A stretch of 35,181 bases of DNA from a virus (lineage: Duplodnaviria > Caudoviricetes). The stretch is from positions 1-35,181 of IMG/VR virus record IMGVR_UViG_3300032097_000001; one strand, 5' to 3'. Made by a program: the position numbers and the translations under genes. The stretch's first letter is position 1, and every line of letters begins with the position of its first letter. Under the pieces are notes generated by a model, which did not search any database, was not told the origin of the DNA, and saw only the letters and a list, made by a program, of their open reading frames with translations. Shown here one piece after another: positions 1 to 35,181 of this stretch.

Positions 1-53
1 GAAACGCCCGCGTGCCTCGCGCGGCACCAGCAGTTGCCGCGGCGTGTCACCAG

Positions 54-103
54 TGTAGCGCGCCGCACAAATTGCGACACCGGGCCATTAGGTTTGTGAC
101 ACG
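54..103. repeat. Phage right-type end (attR-like) with putative transposase-binding sites
   Basis: Begins TGT at 54. TGNGAYA motif at 73-79 (tgcgaca) and 95-101 (tgtgaca), 22 bp apart. The same motif sits at the same distance from the opposite terminus. Confidence 0.7.
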
Positions 104-117
104 GAATTCTGACCCTT

Positions 118-1158
118 TTAATCGTCCTTTACCAGCCGCTTAAACACCACACTCCCCAGCACTCGCCGCCGTATAGTTTCACTGTCCGCATGCCTTGCAT
201 GAGCCACCCACGAAGCGATGCGCTGACGGACATCTGCCGGGTCGATCAGGCCCCTGGCGTACTGCCACTCCATCTCCCGCATCCGGCGCTTCATGCGTCG
301 CACCGAGTCCTTGCGCAGCAGGCGCTTGTGGGGCCAGATCCGATAGCCCAGGAAGTTCACGCCACGGCTGGCAGGCAGCACGCTGGCCTTGCTGAACCGC
401 ATTCCCATACTGGCCAGCTTGTCGTCGAACGCCTGGCGCAGATCCAGGGCCTCCTCCTTTGTGCGCACCAGCACCACCATGTCGTCCATGTACCGCGCAT
501 AGCGCCGCAGGCGCAGGTCGCGCTTGGCCCATTGGTCGATGCGATTACCCACCAGGTTCGCGATCCACTGGCTGGTCAGGTTGCCCACGGGGATGCCTAC
601 CGGGTCCGGGTCGCAGGGATCGGCGGTGCTGTCGATGATGGCATCCAGCACCCGCAGGGTGGCTGTGCAGCGGATGCGGTCACGGATCACGGCCTTGGCC
701 AGATCGTGGCGGATGGAGAAGAAATACTTGCTGACGTCCATTTTCAGCACCCAGGTGTCGCCGCTGGCGACCATGCCGCGCAGCCACTTCTCGACGCGAT
801 CCGCGCCCACGTGGGTGCCCTTGCCGACGCGGCAGGCGTAGTTGTCGAAGATCATGGAGCGGTCCCAGATGGAGCCGCAGATATTGCAGATGGCGTGCTG
901 CGCCACCCGGTCACGGTAGGGCGCCGCCAGGATCTCGCGGCGCTTCGGCTCGTAGACCACAAAGGAGCGGTAGCGGCCAGGGGCGTAGGTGCCCCACAGC
1001 AGCTCCATCTGGAGCGCGCCCAGCTCCTCCCATAGATTCGTTTCGAAGGCTGCCACCTCTCGGCGGTCGCGCTTTCCGCGCCTCGCCAGGCGGTGCGCCT
1101 CCATCAGATTGTCCCAGTCGATGATCTGCTCGATCAGGTTGTTTTGTTTGCGTGCCAT
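118..1158 (-). CDS. brt: DGR reverse transcriptase
   Basis: RT motifs LKMDVSKYFFSI, GIPVGNLTSQWIANL (G-x5-SQ, typical of DGR RTs) and RYMDD. Adjacent to TR and avd. ATG at 1158 preferred over TTG at 1173. Confidence 0.96.
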   Translation of the reverse strand: MARKQNNLIEQIIDWDNLMEAHRLARRGKRDRREVAAFETNLWEELGALQMELLWGTYAPGRYRSFVVYEPKRREILAAPYRDRVAQHAICNICGSIWDRSMIFDNYACRVGKGTHVGADRVEKWLRGMVASGDTWVLKMDVSKYFFSIRHDLAKAVIRDRIRCTATLRVLDAIIDSTADPCDPDPVGIPVGNLTSQWIANLVGNRIDQWAKRDLRLRRYARYMDDMVVLVRTKEEALDLRQAFDDKLASMGMRFSKASVLPASRGVNFLGYRIWPHKRLLRKDSVRRMKRRMREMEWQYARGLIDPADVRQRIASWVAHARHADSETIRRRVLGSVVFKRLVKDD

Positions 1159-1329
1159 TGGGTATCCATTCAATTCAGGGCGCCCGGGCGGGGCTTTCGC
1201 TTGGCGCTAGTCGCGCCACCCGGGCTATCGTGTTCGGCCCACCGGAGCGGGACCGGGATAGATCGGCTGACCCCCTGTTAGGGATCTCAGGTGACGGCAA
1301 CACCGTTGCCGCCCTCTCTGGTATTGGTG
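1159..1329 (-). ncRNA. DGR spacer (Sp) segment of the avd-TR-Sp template RNA
   Basis: 171-nt non-coding gap between TR and RT. Inverted repeats at 1295-1301/1305-1311, 1202-1207/1213-1218 and 1182-1188/1219-1225. Same position as the structured spacer of the Bordetella BPP-1 DGR. Confidence 0.7.
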
Positions 1330-1457
1330 GTCACAGACGCAACGCAGGCCCACATTGCCATTCGCGTTCCACGGATTCGCGTTGGAGTTCAGGCAGCGAG
1401 AGCCGCAGTGGGCGCCGTCGTCGAATTGGCCGCCGCCGATGAAGCTGCGCCAAGAGG
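1330..1457 (-). repeat. DGR template repeat (TR)
   Basis: 128-bp ungapped match to 1854-1981. All 10 mismatches are at A on the minus strand. Rich in AAC/AAT codons (reads SWRSFIGGGQFDDGAHCGSRCLNSNANPWNANGNVGLRCVCD). Confidence 0.97.
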
Positions 1458-1485
1458 CGTCGAAACCCGACCTACCCCTAAAAGG

Positions 1486-1842
1486 TCAGGCGCCCAGTCG
1501 CTGGCGCCAGGCGCCGATCATGGCGCCGATCTCGGATAGCTGCTTGCTGGCATCTCCCACGCGCTTGATGCCCAGCAGCTTGCGTTCTGCTGCATGGCGC
1601 AGCAGGGCGTGAAGGTATCGGACCTGTTCATCTGCGCGGTAAACCTTGCTTTTCTGGTTGCTCATGGCCGCCTCGATCAGGCGCCGCACCAATTCCCACA
1701 GCTCGTCCTCTAGCCGGATGGCGTAGCGGTAGCGCTGGTGTTTCGGGATCTTGTCGATGTGCGGCGCCAGGTCGATGATCAGCCGCTCGGCCTTGTTGAC
1801 GATAACCAGACCCCGCTGTCGCGGGGCCTTTTCAGGGGTCAT
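1486..1842 (-). CDS. avd: DGR accessory variability determinant (Avd, four-helix bundle)
   Basis: About 118 aa, basic, with IPKHQRY and C-terminal LSEIGAMIGAW (EIGxxxGxW motif). Lies between target gene and TR. Confidence 0.92.
   Translation of the reverse strand: MTPEKAPRQRGLVIVNKAERLIIDLAPHIDKIPKHQRYRYAIRLEDELWELVRRLIEAAMSNQKSKVYRADEQVRYLHALLRHAAERKLLGIKRVGDASKQLSEIGAMIGAWRQRLGA
1809..1828 (-). promoter_or_regulatory. DGR target-recognition hairpin/cruciform downstream of VR
   Basis: Minus strand GG-CCCCGC-GACA-GCGGGG-TC: 6-bp perfect GC stem with a GRNA-type 4-nt loop, about 25 nt 3' of VR. Confidence 0.75.
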
Positions 1843-1844
1843 GG

Positions 1845-2915
1845 TCACAGGGCGTCACAGACGCAACGCAGGCCCACAATGCCAAGCGCGCCCCACGGAA
1901 TCGCGATGGAGTTCAGGCAGCGAGAGCCGCAGGGGGCGCCGTCGTCGAATTGGCCGCCGCCGACGAAGCCGCGCCAAGAGGACGCATCGCTAGCGCCATA
2001 GACATAGCTGCGCATTTCGCCGCGCGCGAAGGCGGCATCCTTGCCCACGTCCACGATGGACTTATCCCAGCCGGTGCGGTTTTCCAGACCCAGGTCGTAG
2101 TGGTCATCCAGCCACTCCCACAGGTTTCCTGCGGCGTCCACCACGTTGAACATGGAGACCGCCTTGGCCACCGCGCCGGTGTTGGTCGGGCCGGTGTTGG
2201 TGGTCGCAGACCAGGCCGTGTCGTTGTTGCCGTCGTTGCCCTGGGGCGCGCCCTCGGCGTAGGTCAAAAACTCCTCGGCGCTGGGGATGCGCTTGCCGGC
2301 ATTGCGGGCCAGCAGGTGGAAGTCGGAACGGGCGTAGATGTCGTCCTTGATCGGCGGCACACCGTAGCGGCTCACCGGGATGTTCTCCGGCCAGGTACCG
2401 CTGCCCTCGCTGGCCAGGTAGATATCCGCCCACAGCTTGCCGGGCACCACCTCCACCATCCCGGTGGGGTCACAGGTGGGCCGATGCTGCAGATCCCACA
2501 CGCTGTTGGGCACAATCTGGACGGCCGGTGTGATGCTGGCGTTGTAGCGGTCCGCCACTGCCCGAACGCGGCCATAGTGGAAGCCGCCGATCTTGCGGCT
2601 GTTGGCGCTGGTGTAGCCGCCCGGCACGGTGATGTTGGTGCTGGCGATTAGACCGGCGAGGCCGGCGTCGCTCTGCACCGCGTACAGGTACACGTCGTCA
2701 CCCAGGGCCAGCGCGTCCAGCGAGCCGTCCTGGTTGGCCACGGCGGTCGGGTCCCAGTCGACCAGAGGCTCCAGCACGTAGCCCTTGCCGTTGCCGCCGA
2801 TGTTCAGGATGCCTTCTGGCACATCCAGGCGCATGGCGCCAGATGCCTCGATAGCCCCCATCAGCCCGAAGTGTCCCGCCCCCTGGGCGGGGATTGCATA
2901 AGTCCGCTGGACCAT
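1845..2915 (-). CDS. DGR target protein, Mtd-like receptor-binding protein with C-type lectin (FGE-like) C-terminal domain
   Basis: GKRIPSAEEF, DAAGNLWEW and GGG...CGSRC...GLRCVCD motifs. VR encodes the last ~45 aa. Last gene of the tail module. Confidence 0.92.
   Translation of the reverse strand: MVQRTYAIPAQGAGHFGLMGAIEASGAMRLDVPEGILNIGGNGKGYVLEPLVDWDPTAVANQDGSLDALALGDDVYLYAVQSDAGLAGLIASTNITVPGGYTSANSRKIGGFHYGRVRAVADRYNASITPAVQIVPNSVWDLQHRPTCDPTGMVEVVPGKLWADIYLASEGSGTWPENIPVSRYGVPPIKDDIYARSDFHLLARNAGKRIPSAEEFLTYAEGAPQGNDGNNDTAWSATTNTGPTNTGAVAKAVSMFNVVDAAGNLWEWLDDHYDLGLENRTGWDKSIVDVGKDAAFARGEMRSYVYGASDASSWRGFVGGGQFDDGAPCGSRCLNSIAIPWGALGIVGLRCVCDAL
1854..1981 (-). repeat. DGR variable repeat (VR)
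   Basis: Copy of TR with substitutions at 1879, 1885, 1886, 1891, 1892, 1900, 1906, 1933, 1964 and 1970, each opposite a TR adenine. Confidence 0.97.
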
Positions 2916-3265
2916 TAGACAGCCTCCAGATCAGTAATTGCTTGTTCGACTTCCGGCACCGTGAAGCCCAGCCGGAAGATCTCCGCTTGCGGGCTCTCGA
3001 TGTGCTTCATTTGGACGCGCCGGGTCTCGCCGGTTTCCTCGTCCTCCACGCTCAACACGCGGTAGTCCGGCAGCTCGCCATCCGGGCTCTCGGCTTCGGC
3101 CAGCTCCCGGTCATAGACATAGGTGAAGCGCCCGACCAGCAGGCCCTCCAGGTGCCGCTTGAGCGTGGCCACACCTTGCGGGCGAATCTCGCCCTGGGTG
3201 GCCAGGCCCTGCAGCAGGTCATAATCAGCCCGCGTGCGCAGGCCATAACGGGGTACTCCCTGCAT
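2915..3265 (-). CDS. Hypothetical tail-associated protein (possible adaptor/chaperone for the DGR target)
   Basis: 116-aa ORF abutting both neighbours, with a GGAGG RBS. Function inferred from position only. Confidence 0.7.
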   Translation of the reverse strand: MQGVPRYGLRTRADYDLLQGLATQGEIRPQGVATLKRHLEGLLVGRFTYVYDRELAEAESPDGELPDYRVLSVEDEETGETRRVQMKHIESPQAEIFRLGFTVPEVEQAITDLEAV

Positions 3266-3535
3266 TTAGACTTCCTCCACAGTAATGACCGCCACACCAT
3301 CCACGCGGCTGACCGCGCGGCGATCGGCGATCGCATTGATTGCTGCTGCCAGCTGGGTCTCGTCCGCGATGTCGGCGTTAATGCCGGCATCCGCCAGGAC
3401 GTTCAGCAGCTCACGCTGCAGCATGTTGAAATAATCGGCCAGCATGGGCGTCGCGCGCACGTTGCTGGCCGGGTCTCCGTTTCTCCACTCACCCTCGGAC
3501 GTGGTCCGCTCGGTAAAGACACCTACCTTCTCCAT
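3266..3535 (-). CDS. Short tail-fibre N-terminal (baseplate-anchor) protein
   Basis: 89 aa from ATG 3535 (GGAGG RBS). The GEWRNGDPASNVRATPMLADYFNMLQRELLNVL...DETQLAAAI pattern resembles the N-terminus of Mu-type tail fibres. Follows gp48. Confidence 0.75.
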   Translation of the reverse strand: MEKVGVFTERTTSEGEWRNGDPASNVRATPMLADYFNMLQRELLNVLADAGINADIADETQLAAAINAIADRRAVSRVDGVAVITVEEV

Positions 3536-3537
3536 CG

Positions 3538-4164
3538 TTAAGCCTCCTGATAGCCCACATTCAAAATCAGCCAGGACGGTGCGGCTTCGTGCAGTGCGCA
3601 CTCCACCAGCTGATCGCCCCAACTCCGCAGCGGGTCGCCAATCTCCGACGCGCCGATCTCAGCCACGCGCACCACGCCATTCGGCACCAGCACGTCCCAG
3701 GCCCACAGCCAGTCCTCGCCGTTCATCGGGTCGCCGATCTCCGCGCCCCTGGTTCCTGCACCGGCGCCCAGCTCCATGGTCGCCTCGCGGTGCTCGATGA
3801 TCTGCGCGCCCTCGTAACCCAGCCCCTCGGCCAGGTCGATATAGTCCTGCTGGCGCATACCACCCCGGCCGACAATTCGCCCGATCAGCGCCACGCGGCG
3901 ATCAGTAAGGCTCTGTTCGGTCGGCGCACACTCGCTGGGCAGGCTATAGCTGCTCTCCCACTCAGGAAAAAGCGCATCCGCCTGGCGCGGGTCAGCCTCC
4001 GCCAGCAACTCCAGGCCGCGAGCATCCACTCGTGCAAACTCCTGGGCGGAGCCGTCCAGGAGTCGCTGCAGGTTGCTCTCGGGCTCGGTCGGCCAGACCA
4101 TGCCCGGCGGCAGCAGGCTGAAAAGCAGCCCGCGATAGTCACCACCCGTTAGTTCTGCACCCAT
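3538..4164 (-). CDS. Baseplate/tail protein, Mu gp48-like (YmfQ/DUF2313)
   Basis: LLPPGMVW, EADPR, WESSYSLP and RSWGDQLVEC motifs; synteny after baseplate J. Confidence 0.85.
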   Translation of the reverse strand: MGAELTGGDYRGLLFSLLPPGMVWPTEPESNLQRLLDGSAQEFARVDARGLELLAEADPRQADALFPEWESSYSLPSECAPTEQSLTDRRVALIGRIVGRGGMRQQDYIDLAEGLGYEGAQIIEHREATMELGAGAGTRGAEIGDPMNGEDWLWAWDVLVPNGVVRVAEIGASEIGDPLRSWGDQLVECALHEAAPSWLILNVGYQEA

Positions 4165-5201
4165 GTCACACCTCCCCAGATCGGCAGCACGCCGGTGGCG
4201 TGGATCACGTCAGCGGTAGGCGACTGCAGGTCGTAGTCCTCCACGCCAGGCGCCAGACTGATCGCCGCACGGATGCGGGAAATCAGCAGGGTGCCGCCGG
4301 GCTCGCCCTCGCGCTCCACCAAATCGGCCAGGGCCTGGGCAGCAGCGGTGCGCACCTCCTCGGTGTCCGGCGTGACGATCAACTCCGGCGCGAACGACTT
4401 GGTATCCGGCGCCACCACGTACACCTGGGCCTGTACGTTCTTGCGGTCCTCGATGTAGTCCAGAACCACGTCCAGCAGCTGCTGCGAAGGCAGCGGGCCG
4501 GTGCTCGCATCGTCCGCCATGATGCGGATCACCACCGATCCCGGCCCCATGCCCAGCGGGTCCTCCCAGGCACGGGTCACGCCCGGCACTTCCAGCGCCC
4601 AGCCTTCCCAGTCACCCTGGGCACCGCCACGCGGCACCCGCGCCCGGCGCAACAGGATGCGATCGCGCCAGCTGCTGGGCGTCTCCAGATCCGCGCCACC
4701 CCGGATGCCATCAACACCCACCACGGCCGCCGTGGAAACACCAGGCAACGGCGACACCAGGCGCAGCTCCGCGCCGGCGTCCTGGTCACCAGCCAACCCG
4801 GCGGCCAGCGCCTCCACGGTGGCCGTGGCCGTGCCGGCGGCAATCACCGCTTCGGCGGTGGTCTCGTATTCCTGGCCATCCAGCTGCAGCCGCGTGCCCT
4901 CAACGATCACCGCGTCGTCGCTGCCCTCAAAGGTCACCTCGCCGGTGGCCTTGGCCGCCTGGCGGCGTGGCACGCCAGCGCTGTGCAGGTGCAGCAGCTC
5001 GTCGTCGCAGGTCTCCGGGAACAGCTGGCGCTCCAGCCATTGCAGATACCCATAAAGGCCGTGCGTTACCCCGGCCTGGCTCGTGGCCAGGGCCTTGGTC
5101 AGGCGCGTGGCCAGCGCCGCCTGCGCACCCGGCAGCCGGGACAGCAGGTCCTGGTCGACCCGCGTCATCAGCTCCGGTAATGAAGGCCGTTTAAACGCCA
5201 T
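4149..5201 (-). CDS. Baseplate J-like wedge protein, Mu gp47-like
   Basis: MAFKRPSL start, GGADLE, WALEVPGVTRAW, GPGSVVI motifs. Confidence 0.92.
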   Translation of the reverse strand: MAFKRPSLPELMTRVDQDLLSRLPGAQAALATRLTKALATSQAGVTHGLYGYLQWLERQLFPETCDDELLHLHSAGVPRRQAAKATGEVTFEGSDDAVIVEGTRLQLDGQEYETTAEAVIAAGTATATVEALAAGLAGDQDAGAELRLVSPLPGVSTAAVVGVDGIRGGADLETPSSWRDRILLRRARVPRGGAQGDWEGWALEVPGVTRAWEDPLGMGPGSVVIRIMADDASTGPLPSQQLLDVVLDYIEDRKNVQAQVYVVAPDTKSFAPELIVTPDTEEVRTAAAQALADLVEREGEPGGTLLISRIRAAISLAPGVEDYDLQSPTADVIHATGVLPIWGGVTWVQN

Positions 5202-14343: not shown

Positions 14344-14745
14344 TTACCCCTTGGCCTTGGTGGTGGACTTGCTGGCCGCCTTCGGCTTGGCCTCCTGGTC
14401 GGCCTTGGTCTTGGCCTCCGCTTCGGCTTTCGCCTGGGCTTCCTTCTCGGCCTGCTCCTGGGCCTCCCGCTCGGCCTGGGCTTTGGCTTCCTCGTCAGCC
14501 TTTTCCTGGGCTTCCTTTTCCGCCTGGGCCTGGGCTTCCGCCTCGGCCTTCGCCTGGGCCCGTGCCTCATCCTTCGCCCCGGCGTCGTCCTCGGTGGTCT
14601 CGCGCACATCGCGGATCACACCCTTGCGGGTCAGACGGTCGATCTCCTCGGCGTCCTTCTCGACGTCCATCTCCACCTCGGCGGGCGGCTTGTGCGTCTT
14701 GCCGTCGCGGCGCAGCGGCTCGGTCACTGGAAATTTCATACTCAC
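14344..14745 (-). CDS. Mu gp35-position protein with long Ala/Glu/Lys/Gln repeat tail
   Basis: N-terminal PLRRDGKTHKP domain, then ~8-aa AQxxAExE repeats. Follows the capsid gene; gagg RBS. Confidence 0.75.
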   Translation of the reverse strand: MSMKFPVTEPLRRDGKTHKPPAEVEMDVEKDAEEIDRLTRKGVIRDVRETTEDDAGAKDEARAQAKAEAEAQAQAEKEAQEKADEEAKAQAEREAQEQAEKEAQAKAEAEAKTKADQEAKPKAASKSTTKAKG

Positions 14746-21826: not shown

Positions 21827-22570
21827 TCAGGCCGACTCGGCCAGCTTGCGCAGCCGCTCGGTGGCCACGGCGTAATAGTGCGGGTCGATCTCCATACCCA
21901 CGAAGCCGCGCCCGGATTCCAGGGCGGCCACGCCGGTGGTGGCCGATCCCATGAACGGGTCCAGCACCGTGCCACCCTCGGGCGCCAGGCGGATCACCTC
22001 CTGCATCAGCGACACCGGTTTGCCCACCTGGTGCAGCTTCTCGCCCTTGCGCGGGGCGCAGCGCACCACGCCAGGCAGCGCCGGCGCATCCGGCCCAGCC
22101 TTGGCGCGCGGCCCCTTGCTCGCGGTCAGAACGAACTCGGACTGCTGACGATGCCAGCCCTTGACCGGCCGCGTGCCCTCGGTCTTGTCCCACACCAGGA
22201 TGCCGCGCAGCACGAAGCCCGCCACCTGGATGGCGTCGGAGACGGTCGGCAGCTGCCGCCAGTCGCAGAACACAGCGACCACCCCCCCCCGTTTGAGGGC
22301 GCGATAACTGGCGGTTAACCAGCGCTCACACCACAGGGCATAGGCTCGCTGGTCGCGTGTATCGCCCGGCCAGCTCGGGGCGACGTGACGCGCCCCGGTG
22401 TTCAGGTACTTGTTGCCGGTGTCCTGCACGCGGTCGCCCCGGAACATGCCGCCGCTTGAATAAGGCGGGTCCGTGATCAGTGCGTCCACCGACTCCGGCG
22501 CCAGTTCGGCCAGGGTAGTCAGGGCATCGCCTTGGATCAGCTGGGCGTTGTCAGCCTCCAGTGTCTGCAT
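21827..22570 (-). CDS. DNA N6-adenine/N4-cytosine methyltransferase (beta class)
   Basis: ITDPPY catalytic motif precedes VLDPFMGSATTGVAA SAM-binding motif; HQVGKP. Confidence 0.92.
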   Translation of the reverse strand: MQTLEADNAQLIQGDALTTLAELAPESVDALITDPPYSSGGMFRGDRVQDTGNKYLNTGARHVAPSWPGDTRDQRAYALWCERWLTASYRALKRGGVVAVFCDWRQLPTVSDAIQVAGFVLRGILVWDKTEGTRPVKGWHRQQSEFVLTASKGPRAKAGPDAPALPGVVRCAPRKGEKLHQVGKPVSLMQEVIRLAPEGGTVLDPFMGSATTGVAALESGRGFVGMEIDPHYYAVATERLRKLAESA

Positions 22571-29678: not shown

Positions 29679-29989
29679 CACTTGGCCCTCCGTGCGAACA
29701 TGGCCAGCGGGCTGCGCTTGGGGTGGCGGTGGTGGTGCAGCACCTCGACCACCGCGCCGTTGCGCCGGGGCAGGTGCGCCACTTCCGCCTCGACCCGGGC
29801 GGCCTCCGCGTCCAGGCGCTCCTGGACCGTGCGCTGCTCGGGCAGCAGCGGGAACGGCTCCAGGGCCAGGTGCTCGTACCGGGCCGGATCGGCCAGGTAC
29901 TGGTCCAGCGTGATGCCGTGCCCCTTCAGGTGCAGCGCCACGTAACGGTCGGCGTAGTGTTCCAGGTACTCGTCGCTGTAGGTCTTCAT
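29678..29989 (-). CDS. Hypothetical protein
   Basis: 103 aa, ATGA-coupled to MuB. Confidence 0.75.
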   Translation of the reverse strand: MKTYSDEYLEHYADRYVALHLKGHGITLDQYLADPARYEHLALEPFPLLPEQRTVQERLDAEAARVEAEVAHLPRRNGAVVEVLHHHRHPKRSPLAMFARRAK

Positions 29990-30951
29990 GCTTCACCCCC
30001 AAGGTCCTGCCAGGCGTCGCGGATGTGATCCACGCCCGGGCGGTTGGTGCCGCTCGCGGCGGCGAACATGCTGGCCAGGCGCAGGGTCTGCGACAGGCCG
30101 CGAAGGGCACCCGGCCGGCGGCCGATACCCAGGCAAAGTTGGCGGGCGTCCTTGTCGTTGATGCCCCAGGCTTCCAGCAGGGCGGTCACGTCGGCGTCCT
30201 TGGCGCGGGACAGGCGCACCCGCTTGGCCACACGGCTGAACAGCTGGGCGAAGCCCACGGAGCGGCTGCCGCCGGTCAGCTGGCTGTACACGATCTCGTT
30301 ACCCACCAGGGCCAGGCCGATGCCGGCGGCGTCATGGATGGAGCGCACGGCGTCCAGTGCGCGGTGGGTCAGGTGCTGGGCCTCGTCGATTACCAGCAGG
30401 CCGCGCGTCTCGCGTACCCGCTCGATGATGTTGGCCTCGACCACGTGCACCGCGCCGGTGGAACGGATGCCCAGGGTCTGCGCGATGCGGGTCAGAATCG
30501 GCCCCGGTGCGGACACGGCCGGGGTGGCGGTGACCACCCACACGTTGGGGGCCTGGCGCTTATAGCGGGCGATAGTGGTGGTCTTGCCGACGCCGGCGCC
30601 GCCATACACCACCGACACCGCCTCGGCCATCTGGCTGAACGACAGCGCGGACAGCACGGCGCGGGCGGTCGGGGTCTCCACCCACTCAGGGCCGGCGGGC
30701 ATCTGGCCTTCCAGGGCGGTGGCGGTCTGGCGGCTCTCCAGCCAGCGCCGGATGCTCTCCTCGACGGCGGCCACGTTGCCCTTGTAAACGCCGTTTAACC
30801 ACTGGCTTAACCGGGCTTTACCCACGCCGGTCAGTTGCGACAGGGCGGTCTGCGACAGTGCCTCGGCCTCCATGATCTGGCGGACCTCGGCGATCAGCGC
30901 GTCGTCGTGCTTGTTGGGTGCTTTGCTGAACTGGGTTACGTTGTCGGTCAT
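29986..30951 (-). CDS. MuB: Transposition protein B (AAA+ ATPase, target capture)
   Basis: N-terminal HTH, Walker A GGAGVGKTT, Walker B LLVIDEAQHL, LALVGN, FAQLFSR, PGALR. Confidence 0.95.
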   Translation of the reverse strand: MTDNVTQFSKAPNKHDDALIAEVRQIMEAEALSQTALSQLTGVGKARLSQWLNGVYKGNVAAVEESIRRWLESRQTATALEGQMPAGPEWVETPTARAVLSALSFSQMAEAVSVVYGGAGVGKTTTIARYKRQAPNVWVVTATPAVSAPGPILTRIAQTLGIRSTGAVHVVEANIIERVRETRGLLVIDEAQHLTHRALDAVRSIHDAAGIGLALVGNEIVYSQLTGGSRSVGFAQLFSRVAKRVRLSRAKDADVTALLEAWGINDKDARQLCLGIGRRPGALRGLSQTLRLASMFAAASGTNRPGVDHIRDAWQDLGGEA

Positions 30952-31033: not shown

Positions 31034-33013
31034 TTAAATCTGCTTTTTCTTCCAGTTGTCCATCTGCCCCAGGATGAAGTCGTCGAAGCTGTGCCGATCG
31101 GCCGGGCTCTGCTCGTCGTCTTCTGCCGGGTTCACGTCACTACCGGCCACCCGCTTGCGCTCGCCGAAGCTGCCGCGCACGACCTCTGTCTGTACCGGGG
31201 CGGTATCTTCGGGCTCGGGATCAGGCAGGTAGTCCAGGGTTTCCACTTCGGACATGCGCTTCTCGGCAGCGGCCTGGGCCTTGGCGGCCTTGGCGCGCTG
31301 GGTGCGATTGCGTGCCCACTCACGGGCAGCGCTGGAATCACCGAAGCCAACCGCGAACTGACAGGCGGCCTCGCCGATGTAGCGGCCGTCAATCTGGTAG
31401 ACGTGCACCGACTCGTGCAGCGCGTCAGGATCGAAGCGCACCACCACCTTGCGGCCGATGTGATCAATCAGGGCATCACTGCCATAGCGGTTCTTGCCGT
31501 TGGCACCGCTGCCGACCTTCAGGGCGATGCTGCTGTCGCGCTGCACCGTCACCGCCTCGGCGGCCATCAGCCACATACGGCGCTGGGCATTGGTTGGGCG
31601 GCGGATGCGGTCAGCGTTGCGCTGGTAGCTCTCGTCGAACGCCTGGTTAAAGCTCATCCGGCCGTCGCAGATCTCGGTGTCGCGGTTGGCCATCTCATTC
31701 CACATGCGGATGGCATCGGCCAGCACCTTGCAGAACTCGTCAAAGTTGATCGCCTTCTCGCCGTAGTTCTCCGGCTTGGCCATCGGGTTCGGGCCAGTGC
31801 TAGCGCCTCGGAACTCCCAGCGCTTGTCCACGTATTCGCCCAGGCCGCCCACGCCGAACGCACGCTCGACCGGCTTGGCCTGGCCGTGACCCTTACCCTT
31901 GAACACGCTGGTCCAGTGCACCTGCATGCCCAGCTGCGGCATCAGGCCGATCGGGTCTTCTTCCTTGATCTTGAAGCGGTAGCGGTTCTTGACCCCGCCG
32001 GTCATCCACTTGTTAGCGGCGGCGCGGGTGTTGTCGATGGTCACGTGCTCGGGAATGCCGAAGCGCTCCAGCACGTCGCCCAGGGCCAGGCGGATCATGT
32101 CGGTGTGCTCGGTGCGATCGGTGCGAAAACCGATGATCCGGCGGCTGTACACGTCCTGCCAGAACCAGGTCTTTGGCCGGTCGATGGTGCCGTCCGGGAA
32201 GCGCACGAACACGTTGTGTTTGTAGCCGTCACCGTTGATCCAGAACAGCGCGTGCAGGTCGCGCACCGTGCGCTGCTGGGAGGGGTACAGACGCATCAGC
32301 GCCTCCTCGCCTTCACGCATCAGCACGCGGGTGGTGGTGGGTATGTCGCTGGCCCAGCGGGTAAAGGTGCGCTTGGCCGGCACTGTCCAGCCGTGCTTCT
32401 TGGCGGCCTCCTGGGTCCAGATGTAGCAAGCGGCAATGCTCGGAGCCTCCGGGCGTAGGTACTGCGCCTTGAAGTATTCCCACGCCTCCGGGCTGCAATC
32501 GGCCTTGCTGGTGCGGCCCATGTAGCCGGGCACCAGGGCAGCCAGCCAGTCGGTCCGGTCCACGCCCTTCACCGACTTCTGCCAGCGGTAGATGGTGGCG
32601 CGACTTTCTCCGAACGCCTTGGCGATCTGTTCCACTGCGTTGGACCGGCCCTGCCCCTCGGCGACCAGGCGGTCCACGGCCTGCAACGCCTGCAGCCTGC
32701 GGGCGGCTTCGTCCTTCATGCCCTGGGGGCGGCGCTCGTAGGATGCCCACAGGCTCTCCCGATCCACCACGCCACGGCTGGCGGCCGGGCGGCTCACCTT
32801 CGGGGCCTTGGGCTCGGGCGCCTTGTCCTTCAGAAGGGCGGCCTGGGTCTCCACCGGCAGCGAGGCGAAGGCGTACTCGCGCCCGCCGCCACGGCCGGAG
32901 CGCTTGCGGCTCTCCCAGTTGTCGCGTTTGGCGCGCATATGAACGCCCTGCACAGTGCTCGGCATGCCAGGCTGCCCGGCCAGTTCTTTGGGGGTGTACC
33001 AGTCCAGACTCAT
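31034..33013 (-). CDS. MuA: Mu-type DDE transposase A
   Basis: N-terminal Mu DNA-binding domain (ELAGQPGMP...GGGREY..SLP), catalytic INGDGY / IDNTRAA / KPVERAF, C-terminal VVVRFDPDALH. Confidence 0.96.
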   Translation of the reverse strand: MSLDWYTPKELAGQPGMPSTVQGVHMRAKRDNWESRKRSGRGGGREYAFASLPVETQAALLKDKAPEPKAPKVSRPAASRGVVDRESLWASYERRPQGMKDEAARRLQALQAVDRLVAEGQGRSNAVEQIAKAFGESRATIYRWQKSVKGVDRTDWLAALVPGYMGRTSKADCSPEAWEYFKAQYLRPEAPSIAACYIWTQEAAKKHGWTVPAKRTFTRWASDIPTTTRVLMREGEEALMRLYPSQQRTVRDLHALFWINGDGYKHNVFVRFPDGTIDRPKTWFWQDVYSRRIIGFRTDRTEHTDMIRLALGDVLERFGIPEHVTIDNTRAAANKWMTGGVKNRYRFKIKEEDPIGLMPQLGMQVHWTSVFKGKGHGQAKPVERAFGVGGLGEYVDKRWEFRGASTGPNPMAKPENYGEKAINFDEFCKVLADAIRMWNEMANRDTEICDGRMSFNQAFDESYQRNADRIRRPTNAQRRMWLMAAEAVTVQRDSSIALKVGSGANGKNRYGSDALIDHIGRKVVVRFDPDALHESVHVYQIDGRYIGEAACQFAVGFGDSSAAREWARNRTQRAKAAKAQAAAEKRMSEVETLDYLPDPEPEDTAPVQTEVVRGSFGERKRVAGSDVNPAEDDEQSPADRHSFDDFILGQMDNWKKKQI

Positions 33014-34624: not shown

Positions 34625-35152
34625 ATGACAGACGAGGTAACAAAGGAGATCCAAGACATACTGGACCAGGGACAGGCCAGGCAGGACGACCGGGGTGGCT
34701 CAATCAACATCACGGTGGGCGACATCACGGGCGACAACAACACGGTCATCATCGGCGACCATCCGCGCCGGCGGCGGGAAGATAGGGAGGATGGCGACGG
34801 CAGCCACGGCCGGCGCGCCAGCGATCGCGCCCTCCACCAGGAGCTGCGCTCACTGCGCCGCCAGGTGCGCACCCTTAAACAGCTGGTAACCCACCTTTAT
34901 GCGCGGTGTTCCGTAAACGCTGTTAAACGCCCTGAATGCGCCGTCGCGCCTTGTCGCACTTCTAGCGGCACAACTGACGCTCACCAGGTCAATGTCTCAA
35001 ACTATCACCCGCCCGCATGCGCCGACCGGCAAGCTGCTGAATCCCGCGCCATGCGTGGCTTCCGCTCACATCAACCCACGCCAACCCACATTAACCCGGG
35101 TATCTCATTCCTTCTGGCCCCTAACACCCGGATCGTCCCGGCATGGGCGTGA
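34625..35152 (+). CDS. Hypothetical protein downstream of the repressor; frame stays open through the phage end
   Basis: gggga RBS; first ~90 codons look protein-like (INITVGDITGDNNTVIIGD, short coiled coil). The stop at 35150-35152 lies outside the inferred terminus. Confidence 0.55.
   Translation: MTDEVTKEIQDILDQGQARQDDRGGSINITVGDITGDNNTVIIGDHPRRRREDREDGDGSHGRRASDRALHQELRSLRRQVRTLKQLVTHLYARCSVNAVKRPECAVAPCRTSSGTTDAHQVNVSNYHPPACADRQAAESRAMRGFRSHQPTPTHINPGISFLLAPNTRIVPAWA
34952..35126. repeat. Phage left-type end (attL-like) with putative transposase-binding sites
   Basis: Ends ...cccctaACA at 35126. TRTCNCA motifs at 35101-35107, 34993-34999 and 34952-34958, with the first site set ~100 bp apart from the others as in Mu L1 versus L2/L3. 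Confidence 0.68.
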
Positions 35153-35181
35153 ATTAATGCGTGGGTGATGGCGAGACCCAA

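Follow-up and report, generated by a model that had tools for sequence, protein, structure and literature searches.

A BPP-1-type diversity-generating retroelement closing the tail genes of a Mu-like phage

Directly after gp47 and gp48, phage Mu carries its invertible G segment (S/U-gin-com-mom). What fills this slot in the phage treated here, and did it displace a Gin-type switch? The window is the whole 35,181-nucleotide stretch analysed. A sequence-only reading of it had claimed that a complete diversity-generating retroelement (DGR) occupies the slot, and that it was swapped in for the two-state Gin switch. Its first claim is borne out. We put at about 90% the probability that a complete BPP-1-type DGR closes the Mu-like tail genes here, where it likely rewrites the receptor-binding tip of an Mtd protein, itself likely anchored to the baseplate. 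What carries this reading directly is the genes themselves, a repeat pair differing only at adenines, the Mtd fold of the target, a reverse transcriptase (RT) beside that of BPP-1, and the phage ends.

The phage and its terminal cassette

A Mu-like transposable myophage makes up 35,073 bp of the window, with TG...CA ends at 35126 and 54 and with host DNA outside them (1-53 and 35127-35181). All features below lie on the minus strand. PHROG profiles find the MuA transposase (31034-33013) and MuB (29986-30951), which are 44% and 36% identical to the Mu proteins, and the head and tail genes keep the Mu order. The left end (35120-35126) has its TG at 35126-35125, where contigs split at 35126/35127 in 4/4 runs. 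At the right end (54-117) the TG is at 54-55, 64 nt from the RT stop as had been claimed, and contigs break at 54/55 in 3/4 runs, which are possibly the window's own source. The right-end motif also closes YPCBV-1 and three further loci (L009, L020 and L021), and the repeated TGTC(A/G)CAA sites there are, by analogy with Mu, likely transposase-binding sites. The two host flanks come from different host contigs and have no 5-bp duplication in common.

The baseplate wedge genes gp47 (4149-5201) and gp48 (3538-4164) are followed, in the order that had been claimed, by a fibre anchor (3266-3535), a 116-aa gene (2915-3265), the target gene (1845-2915) with its variable repeat (VR), avd (1486-1842), the template repeat (TR, 1330-1457), a spacer (1159-1329) and the RT gene (118-1158). 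The RT (346 aa, RVT_1) has the motifs YMDD and GIPVGNLTSQ. Its best PDB match is 8ub7 (E 1.1e-66), with group II intron RTs at 7e-16 or weaker, and in a tree of 23 RTs, including three group II intron outgroups, it falls in a clade with BPP-1 bRT (UFBoot 100). Identity as a group II intron or retron RT was rejected, with NCBIfam scores far under cut-offs and the tree also against it. Avd (118 aa, pI 10.3) scores 70.3 bits with the bAvd profile (cut-off 40) and 105.6 bits with NF033474 (cut-off 80).

TR and VR (1854-1981) are each 128 nt long. The VR lies at the target C-terminus and has 13 codons able to vary. The two repeats differ at 10 positions, 10/10 of them at TR adenines, a result with chance P 8e-10 given the 20 adenines in TR. 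Over 41 TR/VR pairs, the window included, 442/457 mismatches are at TR adenines, with the repeat offset picked by an A-tolerant score and with near-duplicates among the loci. These pairs came from 54 regions, 11 of which had no repeat, while two with long duplications were dropped (L023, a 1.73-kb exact duplication, and L044, with two Mtd copies).

Mtd is a receptor-binding protein with a C-type-lectin/FGE fold. The target (356 aa) is a full-length homologue of BPP-1 Mtd by the mtd_2nd profile, and its six PDB sequence matches are all Mtd (E 1.7e-17). Its structural model (pLDDT 92.7) matches Mtd over the full length at E 5e-21 and TM 0.70-0.71 (1yu0), so the claimed lectin-fold target with a VR holds by sequence and by fold. 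The protein likely sits at the virion tail tip as receptor-binding protein.

The spacer is predicted to form a BPP-1-type RNA with priming and stop duplexes (z -3.1; two-sided changes at 15/39 consensus pairs). The predicted priming A is at 1268, in GGTCA-GC as in BPP-1, and the predicted cPRT-stop duplex pairs a 5' arm at 1468-1478 with a 3' arm inside the spacer at 1255-1265. Computed duplex energies are -21.1 kcal/mol for cognate against -13.3 kcal/mol for non-cognate arms (12 distinct spacers). Motif and duplex occur in 19/19 loci tested, and the arms covary (0/20,000 permutations, among sequences that are related). With the Rfam Phage_DGR model (RF03022, cut-off 50) the window scores 24.4 bits over the full model and 0/6 relatives reach the cut-off, against 104.7 bits for the BPP-1 control.

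The published hairpin consensus is a GC stem of 7-10 bp with a GRNA loop, 4-34 bp after VR (PMC3240598). The window has CCCCGC-GACA-GCGGGG at 1811-1826, 27 nt past VR and within the start of avd. Its loop and distance match, and its stem has six perfect pairs and is extendable beyond a G-T mismatch. This hairpin is the best stem in only 19/42 loci, was seen in none of the 19 distant loci, and may be conserved for protein reasons, since it sits in avd coding sequence.

The tail tip and the 116-aa family

The 89-aa anchor, assigned to fibre N-termini by PHROG, aligns with Mu-type fibres solely in their N-terminal part (residues 25-83 of Mu S, 41%, E 1.5e-6) and ends in a short motif common to unrelated fibres. 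DNA likeness to a locus with a P2-type fibre (L039) begins in its last 15 codons and runs at 79% over 3.2 kb, and in three loci (L048, L060 and L061) the anchor is fused to Mtd. The Mtd protein thus likely hangs from the baseplate via this anchor.

The 116-aa protein has no Pfam, PHROG or NCBIfam match. It belongs to an unnamed family of 101 clusters that accompanies Mtd-type DGRs across unrelated tails, and that differs in size and avd co-occurrence from the DGR accessory family CH1, as CH1 is described. Its model (pLDDT 92) has no PDB match at E<=0.001 (best Z 6.4, a generic helical match), which is not proof of a new fold. One fold search returned a single uncharacterised viral protein (E 3e-5), and an Atlas fold search gave no usable match. 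The predicted complex with the target scored 0.00, a figure for single copies, with trimer and anchor left out, that weighs neither way. We regard the protein as a likely Mtd chaperone or docking partner; "adaptor", its name in the sequence-only reading, is a label only.

Could it instead be a fifth DGR accessory factor, working with the RT? Among 50 loci that include both flanks, the 116-aa gene occurs together with RT in 40 and alone in three, seven lack the two genes and none has RT alone, although these loci are not independent. The gene follows RT in L123 and L126 and the target in L125, and two clusters (2 and 6 members) have the protein fused to the RT C-terminus. These fusions, however, still carry a Met in frame where the family sequence begins and could be run-ons; no genomic context for them was found in viral contigs or phage records. 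Moreover, with a pI of 4.7 (family median 4.8) the protein sides with the acidic anchor and Mtd rather than with the basic Avd and RT, and its gene is retained in L012 despite an avd-TR-RT deletion. The family was undetected near the DGRs of BPP-1, BalMu-1, Bise, Mushu and ZX4290, and in every examined locus with the gene an Mtd-type gene is present or the locus is cut off before that point. An accessory role is therefore unlikely, though it keeps real weight beside a role at the tail tip.

Did a DGR replace a Gin switch?

The slot is that of the Mu G segment, and the anchor corresponds to the start of S. Mu Gin, Com, Mom and U have no match in the window (best E 0.057), nor were U' and S' found there, and 0/25 of the longest inverted repeats have both arms in 118-3535, in agreement with the absences first noted. 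The proposed history, in which the DGR replaced a Gin-type G segment carried by an ancestor, fares worse. It can point to the shared map position, to 20/38 tested Mu proteins that match the window with their order kept, and to one relative on this chassis (L013) that has an invertible three-tip cassette. But Mu itself is distant (gp48, 23%), and the post-gp48 loci of the nearest chassis, when compared, had Gin in 0/23. These 23 loci found with gp48 hold an Mtd/DGR module (12), a plain fibre (7) or a tyrosine-recombinase shufflon (1), or are cut off (3); an order-wide search found gp48 in only 3/401 genomes and added nothing on the slot. The shufflon is that of L013, whose recombinase is of the tyrosine type and which is sister to a DGR phage, L037 (UFBoot 100). 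In the tree, DGR carriers surround both the shufflon phage and those with a plain fibre, so the direction from DGR to other modules is likelier here. We judge the Gin-ancestor history improbable; the trees hint instead that the DGR is ancestral in the slot. The L013/L037 pair gives the interchangeability of inversion and DGR in this slot one more example.

From the comparison of loci we infer a portable tail-tip module (fibre C-terminal motif, 116-aa gene, Mtd, avd, TR and RT) that trades places with plain fibres and an invertible tip, and not specifically with a Gin cassette. A wider proposal is tentative, with the odds somewhat against it: Mtd-type DGRs may spread as a plug-in unit, in which the 100-120-aa protein, for which fold searches gave no clear match, and a 15-residue tag at the fibre C-terminus dock one hypervariable Mtd on Mu-type, P2-type and other tails, the unit being swapped in this clade with plain fibres and a three-state shufflon. 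If so, L037 and L013 are a natural comparison of hypermutation with inversion, and if protein and tag prove to be the docking unit, this would explain the movement of DGR cassettes between unrelated tails.

Predicted working and comparison with known systems

By analogy with BPP-1, an avd-TR-Sp-RT RNA would be made, probably as the end of a late tail transcript because the gene junctions overlap or abut; no consensus (sigma-70-like) promoter was found in window 1-4200. RT and Avd would bind this RNA, and cDNA synthesis would start in cis from A 1268, run through TR while making errors at adenines, and halt at the 1468-1478/1255-1265 duplex. The mutated cDNA would then replace VR beside the putative GRNA hairpin, allowing up to about 2e11 protein variants. 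That the element is a relic without remaining mutagenesis is very improbable. Contigs of three runs (X3, X6 and X9) contain no VR variants, but contigs drop rare variants, and while L012 has lost avd-TR-RT, here every frame is intact and the catalytic and RNA motifs are retained. The target also differs from its closest relatives by 9-14 changes in the last 45 residues and 24-53 in the first 311, its C-terminal end being the more divergent.

By the sequence-only reading's own yardstick novelty falls, because a close relative with the same cassette was already described. YPCBV-1 (OP380511.1) was reported in 2022 as a Mu-like Chromohalobacter phage with DGR genes (PMC9769972); what is available of that paper names only avd and RT, gives no TR/VR map and treats the target as an enzyme of metabolism. 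It is 78% identical in nucleotides over window 53-21813 (22 kb), and 45/55 of its ORFs match the window, with ORF49-55 in the same order at 66-88% aa identity, and its record likewise stops 64 nt past the RT stop. It differs in TR/VR sequence and lysis module and lacks a DNA methylase that the window has at 21827-22570.

It is scarcely credible that the target belongs with the non-heme iron enzymes of the SUMF1/EgtB kind, the auxiliary metabolic role put forward for YPCBV-1 ORF53 (PMC9769972), since its FGE-sulfatase match is weak (21.3 bits, cut-off 23.3) and FGE and EgtB structures match its model no better than E 7e-5 (TM about 0.3) where Mtd matches the whole length, while ORF53 itself occupies the tail-tip slot and ends in a VR with 14/14 mismatches at TR adenines. 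The proposed antioxidant "EgtB metabolic gene" of YPCBV-1 is really a receptor-binding DGR target, and its annotation is corrected here. As a plaque-forming phage that encodes a homologue of Mtd and an RT from the clade of BPP-1, YPCBV-1 offers a test bed for DGR activity while the phage replicates by transposition.

Because Mu-like phages that end in a DGR have already been published, this cultured relative among them, the window is an ordinary new example, and the system itself adds little. Mushu (PMC5883640), Hankyphage (PMC6199706, PMC12135933), BalMu-1, Vibrio ZX4290 and Pseudomonas Bise, the last two being other proteobacterial Mu-like records, all carry a DGR beyond the tail genes, close to the right end, and DGR activity has been reported for Mushu (PMC5883640) and Hankyphage (PMC12135933). 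They differ in RT branch, host and target, which makes several separate acquisitions by transposable phages likely. The BPP-1 element (mtd-avd-TR-Sp-brt) shares its order with the window, at 30% (Mtd), 31% (Avd) and 42% (RT) identity, as well as the GGTCAGC priming motif, the predicted stop duplex and the putative GRNA hairpin. BPP-1 itself, unlike the window phage, inserts at a tRNA site and carries an upstream fibre of 508 aa, and the anchor and 116-aa gene were undetected in its first 12 kb.

The phage genome and its host

The window holds a single myophage genome of the Mu-like kind, encoded on the minus strand. At E<=0.01, 20 of the 38 Mu proteins tested found matches, in the same order as in Mu and with MuA (44% identity) and MuB (36%) among them; sheath, tube and gp43-gp48 are supported by Pfam and PHROG. 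TG dinucleotides at 54-55 and at 35126-35125 mark the termini of a 35,073 bp phage (66.9% GC). Contigs break at 54/55 in three of four runs and at 35126/35127 in all four, with a different right flank in one run, but these runs may be the window's own source and so are not independent. No 5-bp duplication is common to the host flanks (1-53 and 35127-35181), which come from separate host contigs; flanks drawn from different insertion sites would be expected to look like this. The named relatives fall in Chromohalobacter, Halomonas and Marinobacter, so that the host is likely a halophilic gammaproteobacterium. A 133-aa ORF (14344-14745) that follows the major capsid gene has an Ala/Glu/Lys-rich 12-nt repeat tract and matched no family.

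A complete DGR at the right end

Judged from its sequence, the region at 118-3535 of this Mu-like phage holds a genuine DGR, complete and of textbook form, and the sequence-only reading had placed all its parts correctly. Between the template repeat TR (1330-1457) and the variable repeat VR (1854-1981) there are ten mismatches in 128 positions, and every one is at a TR adenine (P = 8e-10). Variable codons in VR number 13, allowing ~2.3e11 proteins, although that count includes one 3'-edge codon that may not be rewritten. The RT gene (118-1158) stops 64 nt from the phage end, as had been stated. Its product is closest among solved structures to 8ub7 (E 1e-66), identified as bRT and equal to it in length (328 aa); group II intron RTs are far weaker matches. 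In the proposed phylogenetic check, the clade that contains the RT and BPP-1 bRT came out as sisters, with FastTree support of 0.999 among 39 RTs and UFBoot 100 among 23, in trees whose deep DGR nodes have no firm branching order. Avd (1486-1842) scores above curated cut-offs. The target (1845-2915) matched six PDB sequences, all Mtd variants, and its model (pLDDT 92.7) aligns to Mtd with a TM of 0.70-0.71 across ~380 columns, versus only ~0.3 for FGE and EgtB.

Two findings count against DGR identity: the spacer scores only 24.4 bits with the Rfam Phage_DGR model, and the GRNA hairpin, inside avd, has a 6-bp stem (hairpin consensus from an excerpt of PMC3240598). The predicted spacer fold beats 199 of 200 shuffled sequences, and across 16 sequences two-sided changes affect 15 of the 39 consensus pairs. 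The spacer contains the BPP-1 motif GGTCAGC; the strand after it pairs with a segment upstream of TR in 19/19 loci, and predicted duplex energy across 12 distinct spacers averages -21.1 kcal/mol for cognate versus -13.3 for non-cognate pairs. These predicted elements match the BPP-1 priming and cPRT-stop elements described in passages of 10.1101/2023.10.23.563531.

The tail-tip slot and the 116-aa gene

It had been proposed that the phage swapped a Gin-inversion locus (S/U-gin-com-mom) for the DGR. The reported lack of invertase, com and mom is borne out, since Mu U, Gin, Com and Mom matched nothing in the window better than E 0.057; the Mu S match is limited to residues 25-83, in the 89-aa anchor ORF (3266-3535). 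An N6/N4 DNA methylase gene (21827-22570) between the terminase subunits, absent at that place in Chromohalobacter phage YPCBV-1, could be a stand-in for mom. The swap itself finds no backing among relatives: in the 23 loci retrieved with gp48, Gin never occurs, and the slot after gp47/gp48 holds anchor, 116-aa gene and Mtd in 12 (about eight distinct, several incomplete, and including L012, which lacks avd-TR-RT), a plain fibre in seven (about four distinct) and a shufflon in one, three loci being cut off. Among all loci L001-L111, Gin matched only Mu and L080, where ~5 kb separates it from an Mtd gene that has no RT.

The shufflon-like fibre tip (L013:8618-12406) combines a recombination site that occurs three times (9211 (+), 9668 (-), 9920 (-)) with two spare inverted C-termini and a tyrosine recombinase; its chassis is of the Mu type, with gp43-48 at 73-84% to those of the window. 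L013 also has an N6/N4 DNA methylase near its right end. In a gp43+44+46+47 tree it is sister to the DGR phage L037 (UFBoot 100), and the three plain-fibre phages group together (100) within a DGR-bearing clade (100). The simplest reading, that Mtd/DGR is old in this phage clade and was replaced twice, is not firm because several taxa were found via Mtd, deeper nodes have support of 57-79, and the gp47+48 tree gives the plain-fibre trio no firm position. Survey and trees thus mark the slot as a place where tropism modules in general are exchanged, and they leave descent from a Gin cassette unsupported. In L012 a natural deletion (L012:5672-6871) has fused the beginning of avd with the end of the RT gene and leaves a frozen VR, with Mtd, 116-aa gene and GRNA hairpin kept.

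The 116-aa gene (2915-3265) accompanies Mtd in 68 of the 77 loci with enough upstream DNA (80 Mtd loci in total), while just 18 of the 66 whose upstream sequence is long gave gp47 and gp48 matches. The protein encoded immediately before it ends in a short hydrophobic-[D/S/N/E]-G motif, a pattern composed after inspecting the sequences, in 33 of 47 distinct tails versus 52 of 5,515 control C-termini. P2-type fibres are among its bearers, and similarity between the window and L039, which has such a fibre, starts at the motif. Anchor and Mtd are fused in one ORF of 408-411 aa in L048 (9788-11011), L061 (9788-11020) and L060, where the motif is lost and the 116-aa gene is retained, moved upstream. 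These fusions tie Mtd to the baseplate and weaken a simple bridge role for the 116-aa protein.

The family comprises 101 clusters; the position of distant members varies (4 loci), some preceding the target and others following either the target or the RT, and two clusters of 2 and 6 members (proteins P0221 and P0234), whose genome context was not found, have it fused to the C-terminus of a DGR RT. For this acidic protein we consider a DGR factor less likely than a chaperone or docking partner of Mtd. In eight loci (L045, L049, L052-L055, L057, L059) an Mtd homologue (58-63%) is present but the 116-aa gene is not, and RT is absent from the seven of them with enough downstream DNA. The passages of DGR literature consulted do not mention the family; it may correspond to one of the PAG1-4 genes described in PMC5758913. 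Two loci have repeated Mtd genes: L023:6809-10269 is an exact 1.73-kb tandem duplication from anchor to avd, possibly an assembly artefact, and L044:8874-11039 has two diverged tandem copies without RT.

Comparison with known DGR phages

A 2013 paper reportedly deals with DGRs in Mu-like phages of Firmicutes. Published work describes active DGRs in the transposable phages Mushu (PMC5883640) and Hankyphage (PMC6199706, PMC12135933), and DGRs are also reported from prophages of Desulfovibrio that encode Mu-like proteins (PMC12724379). After a single cycle the Mushu VR is described as remarkably variable (PMC5883640), a result that already bears on the earlier idea of multiple genome copies as targets. 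A literature search on DGRs together with shufflons yielded two gut-phage papers. By gene content only, the BalMu-1, ZX4290 and Bise records show, close to their right ends, an RT accompanied by a gene for Avd or a four-helix bundle. RTs of these other transposable-phage DGRs sit on separate branches of the 23-RT tree.

The best phage match is YPCBV-1 (OP380511.1; RT identity 75.7%), presented in PMC9769972 as a novel Mu-like phage whose DGR genes may yield a hypervariable fibre. That paper takes ORF53 (L001:33159-34208) as an EgtB-like metabolic gene, a reading contradicted by its C-terminal VR (14/14 mismatches at adenines); it is a Mtd-type DGR target. The portable module, the DGR/shufflon sister pair (L037/L013) and the corrected ORF53 annotation are modest but testable side leads. 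Novelty falls, on the condition set by the sequence-only reading itself, because YPCBV-1, a close relative with the same cassette order, is already in print (PMC9769972), and the window's DGR is a fresh example. YPCBV-1 is 78% identical across window positions 53-21813, has ORF49-55 in the same order, and its record likewise ends 64 nt past its own RT stop.
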